Shown here: in pieces, positions 60,657-64,000 of the stretch
How positions within the stretch are numbered: position 1 is the first letter of the stretch
Layout: the number at the start of each line of letters is the position of its first letter
NCBI GenBank assembly: GCA_963816145.1
Contig: CAWFJP010000005.1
Span: 224,001 to 288,000, forward strand
Reading direction: 5' to 3'
Length of the DNA stretch: 64,000 nucleotides
From: an uncultured delta proteobacterium
GTDB taxonomy: Bacteria; Desulfobacterota; Binatia; UBA9968
Notes under the pieces: generated by a model
The model's database searches: none
What the model was told of the DNA's origin: nothing
What the model saw: only the letters and a program-made list of their open reading frames with translations
Made by a program: the position numbers and the translations under genes

Positions 60657-61646
60657 ATGGTGGATTGCGTTGTCGCTGCTCTTTTTATGTGGCTGGCGTT
60701 TTTTGTCTATCCGGTTGCCGCGCAAACGTTCAAGCTCAAGGTCGCTTATCCGACGACGGTGGGGTCGATGGCGGTGGTGTGGGTGGCGAAAGAGGCGAAA
60801 CTATTCGAAAAGCATGGCTTGGAGGTAGAGTTGATTTACGTCGCCGGTAGTTCCCGGGTGGTGCAGGCGATGTTAGCGAAAGATATTCCGATCTCCGAGA
60901 TCGCGATCCCCGCCGTGATCCAAGCCAATCTCGCCGGCGCTGATCTCGTCATGCTCGCCGGGCCGAATCATAAGCCCGGCCAGAAAATCATGGTCAAGCC
61001 GGAGATCAAGCGGAGAGAGGATCTGAAAGGCAAGAAGATCGGCATCACACGCTTTGGCACCTCGGATGATTTTCTCTTGCGCTACGTGCTCGGGCAGTGG
61101 GGTCTGCAGCCTGAACGGGATGTGGCGTTGATCCAGATGGGCGGTTCGCCGGAAATTCTCGCCGGCCTGGCATCGCGCGCCGTCGACGGCGGCATGCTGT
61201 CGTCGCCATTGCATCTGCAAGCCCTGAAATTTGGTTACAGCCTGCTAGCTGACTTGAGCGCCATCGGCGTCGATTATCAGGGCGCCGGCGTGGTGACGAC
61301 CCGGTCGTACCTGCGCGAAGCGCCGGACACGATGCACCGTTATCTGCGCGCTTATATCGAAGGGCTGCATCGTTTCAAAACCGACAAAGCCTTCGCGGCA
61401 AAAGTCATCGGCAAATATTCGCGCATGACGGAGCCGGAGGCTTTGGAAGAAACTTATCAGCACTATGCCGTCAAAGTGATGCCGCGGGTGCCGTACCCGA
61501 CGATCAAAGGCATTCAAATGGTCCTGGATGAGATCGGTACGCGCACACCGAAGGCCAAGAGTCTGTCGCCGGAGAGTTTCATCGACGTGAGCTATCTAAA
61601 AGAATTGGAGCAGGGTGGGTTTATTAAGAAGTTGTATGGCGAGTAA
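60657..61646 (+). CDS. Orphan ABC substrate-binding protein, NMT1/THI5 family
   Basis: 'LFEKHGLEVELI', 'DLKGKKIGITRFGT', 'FIDVSYLKELEQGGFI'; start uncertain. Confidence 0.85.
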   Translation: MVDCVVAALFMWLAFFVYPVAAQTFKLKVAYPTTVGSMAVVWVAKEAKLFEKHGLEVELIYVAGSSRVVQAMLAKDIPISEIAIPAVIQANLAGADLVMLAGPNHKPGQKIMVKPEIKRREDLKGKKIGITRFGTSDDFLLRYVLGQWGLQPERDVALIQMGGSPEILAGLASRAVDGGMLSSPLHLQALKFGYSLLADLSAIGVDYQGAGVVTTRSYLREAPDTMHRYLRAYIEGLHRFKTDKAFAAKVIGKYSRMTEPEALEETYQHYAVKVMPRVPYPTIKGIQMVLDEIGTRTPKAKSLSPESFIDVSYLKELEQGGFIKKLYGE

Positions 61647-62097
61647 CCTATCGGCCCAATGCCCGGCTCAACCGCTGGACGGCCACGGCGAGCTCGTCGA
61701 TATGAACGACAATGGCTCGCGCGACAGGCGTAAACCCGTAAAGCAATCCTAGCCGCGGTTCGGACTACTAACGCCAATGAATCGTTTACCCGGTCGAAGT
61801 ATGTCGCATGTGTGACACGAGCAGCAACGGTGCTGGCGAACGAGGGACTGCTGCCGTCGCGGGTAGCGAATCACTATGTGTGTAAGGCGCAATCGACGGC
61901 GTTGATTCAAATTGGACGCTAACGGAGAGCCAAGACATTTGTGCCGGTGGATGATTGAGCGGCGCTAAAGTTTCTTGGAATTCACGAAATTACCAAATGT
62001 TTTGCTTGGTCGACGGACGCGCAACCTTTGCGATCCGTCGATCGCTGCGAGTGCGACTATAAATCAAATTATTTTTTTGCGCCGCTCAATTATTTTA

Positions 62098-62126
62098 TTG
62101 ACAGGAAAAAATCACTTCCGTAAAGT
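62098..62126 (+). promoter_or_regulatory. Near-consensus sigma70 promoter
   Basis: TTGACA-17 nt-TAAAGT preceded by an AT-rich UP-like tract. Confidence 0.7.
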
Positions 62127-62132
62127 AATGGT

Positions 62133-62322
62133 CAGCAGGGAAAGGAGGTGGTCCAGACATGATTGATTTAAGTACTGGCTGTGAGGTGGCTGAGACTTAG
62201 GCTCTAGGCGGAATCTCTGATGGAGATTCGGGCCTAGAGCCTGGGAATCTCCCTCAGCCACCGCAGTGGCCCGCTACACCGGTTGCGCAAGCCGCCGTGT
62301 GTAGCGGGCCTTCTTATTTTTT
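62133..62322 (+). ncRNA. Putative small structured transcript with extended Shine-Dalgarno and a 13-codon ORF (62159-62200, MIDLSTGCEVAET)
   Basis: Promoter; GAAAGGAGGTGGTCCAG; long hairpin (GGTGGCTGAG/CTCAGCCACC, AGGCTCTAGGC/GCCTAGAGCCT, GAATCTC/GAGATTC); terminator. Confidence 0.55.
62268..62322 (+). terminator. Rho-independent terminator (probably also serving the convergent HEAT gene)
   Basis: GGCCCGCTACAC...GTGTAGCGGGCC followed by TTCTTATTTTTT. Confidence 0.75.
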
Positions 62323-63021
62323 CTGCAATATTTTGAGTGCCGCATCGGCGCTCTTTTTGATTTGCTGGTTGCCGCCTATGCTCGCTTCAGTGAGTGCTCG
62401 GAGAAATTCTTGATCCGCGGATCCTAGACTCGCCAAGGTCACGGCGACCGCGTTTTTTACGCGGTCGTCGGTGTCACGCAGATAACTTGCAAGGAGTTTC
62501 TGACGGACCGCGGCATCCACATCGCTTCTTAGCTTAAAACTGGTGACCGCGGCGACGCGCACTGTCGGTTCATCATCGTCCAATGCTTTCAGCATTGCTG
62601 CTCGACTCTCGCCGTCGCTCAAAGCTAAATCGCGCAAGCAATAAAGCGCCATGCGTTTTTGATTGGCACTGCCGCTTATGCATAGTTCAATCAGCAGTGA
62701 GACCACTGCGGGTTCTTGTTGCGCGATGCGCACCAGTAGCAGGCCGTTGGCCCAACGAATATCGGGTTCGCGATGATCGAGGGCGATGAGCAATGTGCGA
62801 AGGACAGCGCCTGAGGGTTGGCTTTGATGGCCGAGGACATAAGCGACCGGCCAATAGTTTCTGTGATCGGGTTCGTTGAGCCGGTGGTTTAGGGTGTCCC
62901 GGAGGCCCGCGGAGGTTTCCCCCAGGGCGATGAGCTTGTCGACGGCGGCGCGGATCGTCGGTTTGTCGGGATGATCGAGGGCAGTGATGAGATCGGCGAT
63001 CTCGCGTGAATCGGTTGCCAA
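62314..63021 (-). CDS. HEAT-repeat protein
   Basis: Repeats 'ALDHPDKPTIRAA', 'ALDHREPDIRWA', 'ALDDDEPTVRVAA'. Confidence 0.75.
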   Translation of the reverse strand: MATDSREIADLITALDHPDKPTIRAAVDKLIALGETSAGLRDTLNHRLNEPDHRNYWPVAYVLGHQSQPSGAVLRTLLIALDHREPDIRWANGLLLVRIAQQEPAVVSLLIELCISGSANQKRMALYCLRDLALSDGESRAAMLKALDDDEPTVRVAAVTSFKLRSDVDAAVRQKLLASYLRDTDDRVKNAVAVTLASLGSADQEFLRALTEASIGGNQQIKKSADAALKILQKK

Positions 63022-63052: not shown

Positions 63053-64000
63053 TTAGATTTCCAAAAACTGCGGACAGTCGGTCAGGTTGCGGTTGCCTTT
63101 GGGCCTAACTACCACGACGTCTTCCAATCGGACGCCGCCGACGCCTAAGTAATAGAGCCCCGGTTCCACGGTGACCACATGGCCGGTGCGCAGGACCGCG
63201 TCGACCGGGGCGATGCGCGGCGGTTCGTGAATGTCCAAGCCCAAACCATGGCCGGTGCCGTGAAAGAAGCCCTGCATGCGGCCGTTGATCCTGCCGGTGG
63301 GAAAGCCCCGGGCGGCGAACATGTTCAAAATATTCTGGTGCACTTCCTTACCATTGACGCCGTCGCGGATCTGGTCGTAGCCGATCCGTTGGCCGGCTTG
63401 CACGGTGGCGTAGATTTGTTTCAATTTTTCCGACGCCCGGCCGCGCACCACGGTGCGGCTCAAATCGCCGAAATAGCCATTGTGTTGCGAGCGCGGGAAA
63501 ATATCGAAGATGATCGAAGTGTTCGCTTTGATCGGGCCGGCGCCTTCATGGTGCGGATCGACGCATTGATTGCCCGACGAGATGATCGTGTGGCTCGGCA
63601 GCCAGCCTTGCGCCATGATCGTCGTATTGACCCCGGTCTTGAGCATCTCGGAAGTCAGCCGCAGACCGTTGAGATAGAGATACCCGTCGCGTTTGGTCTT
63701 GGTCCGTTTGAGCATGCGGATGCCGGCTTCCAAACCGAGACGGGCGATGCGCAGCGATTCGGTGATCTGTTTCACTTCAAGATTGTTCTTGGTCTCGCGC
63801 TGGGGCCAGAAGGGGTCGCGCTTGATCTGCACGCTGTAACCTTTCGCACGCAGTTGGTCTAACAATAGGGCGGAAAAATTTGCCGGCACGATGAGCGAGC
63901 GAATGCCGCGCTCGCGAAAAATCAAATCGACAATGTCGATCATTGCCGCCGGCGCTTTGCCGAGTTTGCGCAGTTTTTTCTGATAGAGCGACAACGACAG
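63053..64000 (-). CDS. Xaa-Pro peptidase (M24 family), partial (5' end outside window)
   Basis: DPH, IIFDIFP, YFGDLSRT, HGTGHGLGLDIHE, TVEPGLY, GVRLEDVV. Confidence 0.9.
   Translation of the reverse strand: MSLSLYQKKLRKLGKAPAAMIDIVDLIFRERGIRSLIVPANFSALLLDQLRAKGYSVQIKRDPFWPQRETKNNLEVKQITESLRIARLGLEAGIRMLKRTKTKRDGYLYLNGLRLTSEMLKTGVNTTIMAQGWLPSHTIISSGNQCVDPHHEGAGPIKANTSIIFDIFPRSQHNGYFGDLSRTVVRGRASEKLKQIYATVQAGQRIGYDQIRDGVNGKEVHQNILNMFAARGFPTGRINGRMQGFFHGTGHGLGLDIHEPPRIAPVDAVLRTGHVVTVEPGLYYLGVGGVRLEDVVVVRPKGNRNLTDCPQFLEI

Follow-up and report, generated by a model that had tools for sequence, protein, structure and literature searches.

Ms_IGR-5 in a Binatia genome: a predicted structured small RNA with a complement of the 16S rRNA tail and a conserved short reading frame

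The window analysed here is a 64,000-nucleotide (nt) stretch of contig CAWFJP010000005.1 (assembly GCA_963816145.1) from an uncultured delta proteobacterium of the class Binatia, and the element in question lies near its end, at 62098-62322 on the plus strand. This locus contains a promoter, a complement of the 16S rRNA tail, a short open reading frame (ORF) of 13 codons, a long hairpin and a terminator. An earlier note on this DNA had described the TTGACA-17-TAAAGT promoter, the ORF at 62159, an internal GAGGTGG, the nested hairpin and the terminator, and each was found where the note had put it. The locus is predicted to be a self-contained gene of about 185 nt, from promoter to terminator, whose product is a structured small RNA (sRNA) of the Rfam family Ms_IGR-5, and the best reading of its sequence is that the RNA is built to be bound and translated by ribosomes. 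Among the three readings that the note had offered, a ribosome-binding RNA appears to fit best.

The promoter (62098-62126) consists of the -35 hexamer TTGACA (62098-62103), a 17-nt spacer and the -10 hexamer TAAAGT (62121-62126), and is the only promoter-like site that a promoter scan found within 61500-62900. The predicted transcript start is at about 62134-62135, and the tetranucleotide GCAG begins about 8 nt past the -10 hexamer. GCAG (62135-62138) is the 5' strand of a helix that we call Pc. It is followed directly by the extended Shine-Dalgarno (SD) sequence GGAAAGGAGGTGGTCCAG (62139-62156) and, 2 nt later, by the mini-ORF MIDLSTGCEVAET (62159-62200), which runs for 13 codons from the ATG at 62159 to the TAG at 62198-62200. 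The 3' strand of Pc, CTGT (62179-62182), placed by the pairing counts of the alignments, is made of the last base of codon 7 and the following Cys codon, and next to it the Glu-Val codons lie within the internal SD-like GAGGTGG (62183-62189). According to both the fold and the alignment, the 5' arm of helix P1, GGTGGCTGAG (62185-62194), pairs with the 3' arm CTCAGCCACC (62253-62262), which contains a CCACC resembling the anti-SD core. Between the two arms, hairpin P2 (62196-62245) starts at the stop codon and is divided into P2a (62197-62209 with 62232-62244) and the apical P2b (62211-62217 with 62223-62229), and it is followed by a conserved 'bulge', GAATCTCC (62245-62252), which may instead pair with GGAGATTC (62222-62229) as a pseudoknot alternative to P2b. 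The nested hairpin of the fold prediction spans 62185-62262. The terminator (62268-62322) has a terminal hairpin at 62268-62310, followed by TTCTTATTTTTT, with a U-rich tail at 62311-62322 that abuts the stop codon of the convergent gene; a simple terminator scan missed the hairpin because of its interior loops. With a predicted folding energy of -101.9 kcal/mol (z = -6.8), 62130-62322 folds better than every one of 200 shuffles. Single-sequence folds also contain a small, tentative hairpin at 62153-62178 (CCAGAC... with ...GTACTGG) with the start codon in its loop. Further along, at 62335-62353 on the plus strand, another terminator-like hairpin (GAGTGCCGCATCGGCGCTC, then TTTTTGATTT) was seen, 13 nt past the U-tract of the element and within the 3' end of the convergent HEAT-repeat gene.

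The earlier note had named a match to a known Rfam family, such as 6S RNA, as an outcome that would count against its proposal. Such a match was found: RF02471, Ms_IGR-5 ('Actinobacteria sRNA'), aligned over its full length (model positions 1-184) with 62134-62317 on the plus strand at 46.2 bits, against a gathering score of 45 (E = 3.1e-07 in the 64-kb window). It was the sole Rfam match above the gathering score in the window and is present as a single copy in the genome. The suggestion of 6S RNA itself was not borne out, since no 6S model was among the eight Rfam matches up to E = 10 in 61900-62500 or reached the gathering score in the window, and no other Rfam family reached its gathering score in the window or on ten loci from other phyla. 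The order of the conserved blocks (extended SD, GAGGUGRCUG, AAUYCC...CAGYCACC and terminal hairpin) is that of the family consensus. The host is not an actinobacterium, as the family title would have it; the nearest named records carry the titles Candidatus Binatia, Deltaproteobacteria or Syntrophobacter(ales). There are also differences from the RF02471 model: helix Pc is distinct from the first stem of the consensus line of Rfam, in Binatia Pc is out of register by one base, and the 16S pairing of Binatia extends 2-3 nt more, into helix 45. From these comparisons the element is assigned to a known, uncharacterised Rfam family, here outside its named phylum.

In the covered parts of the respective sources, Ms_IGR-5 is listed as validated by RNA-seq in Streptomyces lividans (PMC8079986), it is one of two Rfam-matched sRNA transcription units in S. 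avermitilis (PMC8780764), and its homologues in Mycobacterium abscessus and M. smegmatis have significant ribosome-protected reads (PMC4974804). The locus is not mentioned in the covered passages of Shell et al. 2015 (PMC4633059). Literature searches with fragments of the encoded peptide, with M. tuberculosis sRNA names and for an Rv0812/Rv0813c sRNA gave no matches, and those with the sequence motifs of the element matched only unrelated primer lists.

To describe the distribution, we used the Rfam model, an exact-pattern scan and R1, a sequence-only model of the 5' module of the element. RF02471 matched 35 of 41 genomes of the order to which the window belongs, once in each genome (E <= 0.01 per genome), most of these relatives scoring below 45 (24-43 bits). 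The exact-pattern scan of species-representative genomes gave at least 120 loci, and among the matches listed most were from Actinomycetota (Mycobacterium, Pseudonocardia, Streptosporangiaceae, Nocardioidaceae and others), some had Candidatus Binatia, Deltaproteobacteria or Syntrophobacter(ales) titles, and a few were titled Ignavibacteriales, Zixiibacteriota, Blastocatellia or Leptospira weilii. In the last four the best match of the Rfam model was the element itself (47.5, 37.7, 33.8 and 24.7 bits, respectively). R1 matched 70 of 151 Actinomycetota genomes drawn evenly, 12 of 151 from the phylum of the Blastocatellia genome (Acidobacteriota), 53 of 151 from the phylum of the Ignavibacteriales genome, 13 of 121 from the Leptospira phylum and 2 of 121 from the phylum of the window, namely the window's genome and one of the same class. 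RF02471 had no match at E <= 0.01 in any of the 14 well-known control genomes, Corynebacterium glutamicum among them. The distribution is wide and patchy, and the element is usually single-copy. Two strong R1 matches each were seen in genomes G066 and G525, and a weak second match each in G112 and G156. Unpublished genomes were included, namely G005 (one of the 35 matches in the order, and in alignments A1-A3) and G046, G063, G093, G127 and G165 (five of the 70 Actinomycetota matches); L179 (from G127) and L182 (from G063) are rows in the pairing, frame and Pc alignments, and no conclusion hinges on these genomes.

The trait that the earlier note had singled out is the 16S complement, GAAAGGAGGTGGTCCAG, at 62140-62156. 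It had been described against the typical bacterial 16S 3' end as a 17-nt pairing with one G.U, and the genome's own 16S gene (L002), which ends ...CTGGATCACCTCCTTTCTAAGG (...CTGGATCACCTCCTTTCT ahead of the spacer), bore this out: given this 3' end, the motif can pair over 17 nt with one G.U, or over 18 nt with two (62139-62156, the complement of the last 18 nt). The 7.8-Mb genome has 8,987 GGAGG sites, counting both strands, and we compared this pairing with that of all of them. Longer pairing with the 16S tail was found only in the antisense of the 16S gene (20 nt), and the next-best sites reached 15 nt. Two further sites in this genome stand directly before an ATG, both on the minus strand: a 15-nt complement with one G.U on contig C14 (about 374145) and a perfect 14-nt complement on contig C30 (about 463807), which are probably very strong ordinary ribosome-binding sites.

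The extended complementarity, whose conservation in relatives had been proposed as a test, is kept both in relatives and across phyla. The search pattern left free four positions upstream of AGGAGG, and these were counted in 135 dereplicated pattern loci. The position facing the rRNA C is G in 133 of the 135, and those facing rRNA U are A or G in 127-135, with free A/G switching in Actinomycetota. Among 82 dereplicated R1 matches from five phylum scans, positions 1-15 each pair in 72-82 sequences, position 13 being G (72) or A (10) and never a pyrimidine, and continuous runs of pairing are mostly 15-18 nt long. Position 1 pairs in 76 of the 82, and the next base upstream is already part of Pc. 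The 16S tails of one Mycobacterium and one Blastocatellia genome are identical to that of the window. The note's further point, that the pairing reaches into helix 45, holds for the genus of the window but not elsewhere: pairing beyond position 16, into the last CAG, is kept only in this genus. On this comparative evidence, the 16S complement is apparently selected.

The four nucleotides directly 5' of the SD pair with the four that end at the first G of GAGGUG, forming helix Pc. Its strands are CACA/UGUG in 79 sequences, CGCA/UGCG in 11, CACG/CGUG in nine, CGCG/CGCG in nine, CGAG/CUCG in two, CACU/AGUG in two and CCAG/CUGG in one, and 26 sequences of the Binatia type, one base further 5', have GCAG with CUGC or CUGU. 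Other registers show far less pairing. In a MAFFT alignment of 77 R1 matches, 95.1% of the Pc cells are paired, and three of the four pairs show double changes (AU 55/GC 18; CG 70/AU 3; AU 33/GC 28/UA 2); in 20 Binatia-type sequences 100% of the cells of the 62135-62138 strand are paired. The codon that would be taken for a conserved Cys is, as the covariation indicates, one strand of a 4-bp helix with the 5' end of the RNA, and this codon varies between Cys, Arg, Leu and Ser in step with the 5' strand of Pc. A -10 hexamer of the form TANNNT ends 6-9 nt before the Pc 5' strand in 37 of 37 Binatia-type and 101 of 102 actinobacterial loci, and Pc would therefore take in the outermost 5' nucleotides of the RNA. 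The Binatia-type loci also have a conserved CACTT(T/C)CG or CGCT(T/C)CC block immediately ahead of the -10 hexamer, in the spacer to the -35 (62111-62120 in the window), a possible operator or extended promoter element.

For the wider fold, a consensus was drawn from the subset of 20 Binatia-type sequences, as the two types of P2 misalign under MAFFT in the full set. It contains Pc, P1 (GGUGRCUGAG with CUCAGY..CACC), P2a from the stop codon and the terminator, with 96-97% of cells paired and double changes in 12 pairs. No shuffle matched the consensus in cells paired, in double-change pairs or cells, or in covariation score, and the further pair types were reached by 30 and 5 of 500 shuffles. 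In P2, 3-5 pairs have compensatory changes, and in the terminator stem six of the nine pairs have double changes. The GGRGAUUC segment (62222-62229) has two options, namely the apical strand of P2b, largely through G.U pairs, or the bulge GAAUCYCC (62245-62252), through Watson-Crick pairs, two of them with double changes, and with 89.8% of cells paired. The motif AAUYCC...CAG(N2-4)ACC recurs in all phyla, and in the phylum of the Ignavibacteriales genome it faces, by eye, a conserved GUUGGG inside P2, the length of which is variable among the sequences. Several of the structural statements beyond Pc, P1, P2a and the terminator rest on inspection.

The reading frame was examined in 78 dereplicated R1 matches. 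In 77 of them, by script, the distance from the first G of GAGGUG to the stop codon is exactly 15 nt; in the remaining one (L195) the script took an earlier GAGGTG, and the frame read by eye on the alignment has the stop at the same place. Control frames 1 and 2 have no stop at this distance, their stops being scattered. The stop codons are TAG (61), TAA (12) and TGA (4). An in-frame ATG, GTG or TTG follows the SD within 14 nt in 69 of the 78, and nine more have only CTG, ATT or ATA, in comparison with a canonical start in 14 of 78 for control frame 1 and one of 78 for control frame 2. The first 31 matches gave the same picture as the full 78. The spacing from SD to start is 0-9 nt across the matches, the ORF is 11-19 codons long, and TTG, GTG or CTG starts are common: TTG is used in 14 of 30 Actinomycetota matches and in 22 of 27 from the phylum of the Ignavibacteriales genome. 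In one actinobacterial subgroup (L164, L170 and L175-L178; 6 of 30) CTG, 3 nt after GGTCC, is the sole in-frame start near the SD, and elsewhere TTG or GTG starts outnumber ATG. In alignment A1 (83 sequences) the start codon is followed by A in at least 90% of cases; such an NTGA start fits selection for efficient initiation, yet makes an overlapping TGA in the +1 frame.

The encoded residues are kept far less than the frame. GAGGTG is near-invariant across phyla (the sole exception seen is GAGGGG in L187). The residue before the Glu is Cys, Arg, Leu or Ser, and the one before that Trp, Arg, Ser or Gly. Codons 2-5, in the variable N-terminal part, show no more variation at the third position than at the first two in the actinobacterial set and in the set from the phylum of the Ignavibacteriales genome, and purifying selection at the amino acid level was not seen in these two sets, codons 2-3 of the Binatia type being a partial exception. 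These sequences indicate that start, stop and frame are conserved and the peptide sequence is not. Since the frame is kept but not the residues, the act of translation, that is, ribosome occupancy and refolding of the RNA, would be the conserved product rather than the peptide. A frameshift or readthrough reading of the ORF was considered and rejected, as neither a slippery site nor a conserved second frame was seen.

These features suggest how the RNA might work. Pc would close a loop displaying an SD that can base-pair over 15-18 nt with the 16S 3' end, and a 30S subunit would dock on this 5'-proximal, full-length SD, where it would shield the 5' end of the RNA. The ORF of 11-19 codons traverses Pc and the P1 5' arm and ends at the foot of P2, so its translation would have to unzip Pc, P1 and most of P2a, and the freed C-rich 3' strands (CCACC or UCACC) could then refold or pair elsewhere. 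When the stop codon is reached, the internal GAGGUG is 6 nt from the last sense codon, where it could re-pair with the anti-SD, and a 6-nt spacing is that of SD/anti-SD pairing at initiation. The RNA is most likely a ribosome-gated regulator or reporter of translation capacity, the state and stability of which would report ribosome engagement, with its 5' end protected as in STAB-SD. To this reading we would give an even chance.

Comparison with known systems places this proposal. In the covered part of its source, the STAB-SD of Bacillus thuringiensis cry3A is a site where a bound 30S subunit blocks 5'-3' decay by RNase J1 (PMC4113751). The present element likewise has a 5'-proximal SD complementary to the 16S 3' end, but the SD of STAB-SD does not initiate translation, whereas here a start codon follows within a few nucleotides (2 in the window) and its frame is conserved. 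Small ORFs overlapping sRNAs are described for Staphylococcus aureus in the covered part of PMC13009471. The Ms_IGR-5 RNA may be likened to a dual-function sRNA in being a stand-alone, structured small transcript that carries an ORF of translated type, here a predicted one. SgrS/SgrT and RNAIII/hld are dual-function sRNAs, and unlike theirs, in which the peptide is conserved and active, the peptide of the element is not conserved and no base-pairing target has been assigned. Leader-peptide attenuators, such as the trpL-type leaders and the cysteine-responsive short ORFs of mycobacteria, resemble the element in that translation of a short ORF competes with downstream helices and is followed by a terminator; the element differs from them in having no downstream regulated gene at most loci, no codon run for a single amino acid and an SD far stronger than a leader requires. 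In prfB and dnaX, an internal SD stimulates recoding. The element shares with these an SD-like motif at a fixed distance before the stop and a stable structure downstream, but it has no slippery sequence and no conserved continuation in another frame, and the length of P2 is variable.

Several points weigh against a ribosome-gated RNA or limit how far the comparison carries it. The proposed re-pairing of GAGGUG with the anti-SD at the stop codon is drawn from the spacing. In the window itself a second GCAG (62263-62266), adjoining the P1 3' arm on its 3' side, offers CUGU at 62179-62182 another partner, and the unconstrained fold of the window's own sequence prefers it over Pc; among the sequences inspected it is limited to close relatives of the window, and Pc is therefore taken as the conserved pairing. 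The pseudoknot and P2b are alternatives, with no preference between them. The start-codon hairpin (GUCC/GGAC in Actinomycetota) is not general, with 62% of cells paired. Codons 2-3 of the Binatia type (Ile-Asp) vary at the third position only, so some constraint on the peptide is possible in these sequences. The search pattern fixed 24 bases and R1 was trained on its matches, which biases both sets to those motifs, and the related sequences in the counts are kin and not independent. Five contigs assembled from four RNA runs (160-227 nt, depth 2.6-5.7) cover 61932-62158, 62183-62401, 62198-62357, 62247-62445 and 62399-62624; these run across promoter and terminator alike, so that the element does not bound them, and possibly derive from DNA. 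Lastly, no functional study of Ms_IGR-5 or RF02471 was found in the literature covered, from which the founding paper and supplementary tables were absent.

The likeliest rival of the ribosome-gated RNA is a sponge for the 30S subunit or its anti-SD, an abundant RNA that would titrate the 16S tail, for example in favour of leaderless or weak-SD mRNAs, with the ORF serving only to release or recycle the subunit. The standing of the window's complement as the longest in its genome (besides the 16S antisense) and the conserved full-tail pairing would suit a sponge, as would the frequency of weak start codons behind the strongest SD and the presence of a second SD-like motif. A single gene copy, however, would need very high expression against thousands of ribosomes, and neither the strict position of the stop nor the downstream fold is needed for titration, so we consider a sponge unlikely.

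An extremely strongly initiated micropeptide was another reading of the earlier note, and it survives in its frame but not in its peptide. As a micropeptide gene, the element would encode a functional peptide of 11-19 residues (x4-8-T-x-E-V-[AT]-x-x), with the structure and the SD serving only stability or output. ORF, start and stop are indeed conserved, Glu-Val followed by Ala or Thr is near-invariant, and the third-position variation of codons 2-3 in the Binatia type points the same way. Each conserved residue, however, has a codon that is also part of an RNA element (GAGGUG and RCUG in P1; the Cys/Arg/Leu/Ser codon in Pc), the remaining codons show no codon-position periodicity over a length that varies from 11 to 19 residues, and there is no modifying enzyme or partner gene among the conserved neighbours. 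This explanation seems to us somewhat less probable again than a sponge.

The neighbouring genes bear on a cis-acting role, in which the element would either control a downstream gene as a leader-peptide attenuator or act on the convergent gene as an antisense or terminator element. In the window, the downstream ORFs supported as genes are 62314-63021, the convergent HEAT-repeat gene, and 63053-63994, both on the minus strand, which agrees with the note's statement that no gene lies downstream on the same strand; the plus-strand ORFs of up to 227 amino acids listed downstream are taken as non-genes because they are antisense inside these two genes. Within the genus of the window, the HEAT-repeat protein and an M24 peptidase are convergent to the element, and in mycobacteria the upstream neighbour is a class IV aminotransferase and the convergent one downstream a THAP4-type haem-binding protein. 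With crude ORF calls, the downstream neighbour is convergent at 34 of 37 Binatia-type and 56 of 89 actinobacterial loci. Synteny of the neighbouring protein families was seen within clades, none of them being common to different phyla, and in four other phyla the neighbours are unrelated (MFS transporter, patatin, cellulase, FadL, BACON and others). The convergent downstream genes and the lack of shared neighbours thus argue that the element is its own gene and not a leader. A cis role could draw on the short ORF followed by a terminator, which abuts the stop of the convergent HEAT-repeat gene, on the 21 actinobacterial loci with a same-strand gene within 300 nt downstream (crude ORF calls) and on the same-strand downstream cluster in 12 of 14 Leptospira-phylum loci analysed. 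Against it stand the predominance of convergent neighbours, which differ between phyla, and the lack of an amino-acid-specific codon run in the encoded peptides, and we regard it as very unlikely. A separate candidate, a link to the ribosomal protein bS22, was rejected: PF08213 was found in none of five carrier genomes, including that of the window, and its only match among the controls was in Corynebacterium glutamicum, which has no RF02471 match.

It is scarcely credible that the RNA is a guide or ruler for 16S 3'-end maturation, a form of the 3'-end handling guide that the note had suggested, with tail pairing up to the mature 3' nucleotide setting the trimming end, since its sole support is the geometry of the pairing, which begins a few nucleotides from the RNA 5' end and ends at the last nucleotide before the spacer, with position 1 conserved next to Pc, and the RNA is missing from many genomes of the same phyla and from all 14 controls, and the conserved ORF and stop position would play no part.

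Returning to the ribosome-gated RNA, a broader proposal can be put forward, although in its full form we hold it to be improbable, if less so than the sponge. Ms_IGR-5 would be a ribosome-directed regulatory RNA and the ribosome's counterpart of 6S RNA for RNA polymerase: its 5' end would capture the whole of the free 16S tail, the mini-ORF would walk the ribosome into the pseudoknotted fold, and the second SD-like motif would hold the ribosome at the stop, so that the RNA would serve to park ribosomes or to count them and would adjust how many anti-SD tails are free, in at least five phyla.

The ordinary part of these results is that the RNA is already catalogued, and the unusual part is what the comparison reveals, with the 16S-tail complement as the defining trait. 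An RNA filed as an actinobacterial sRNA is a usually single-copy element of several distant phyla, and the title and consensus structure of RF02471 need revision, while annotation pipelines for sRNAs should flag the ORF. The 5' module may be regarded as a natural maximal ribosome-binding site. The invariant parts of the element are exactly those able to pair with the mRNA-binding tail of the ribosome, and its reading frame appears to be conserved for being read and not for the residues that it encodes, which raises the question of whether a dedicated RNA serves bacteria for sensing or buffering their free ribosomes.

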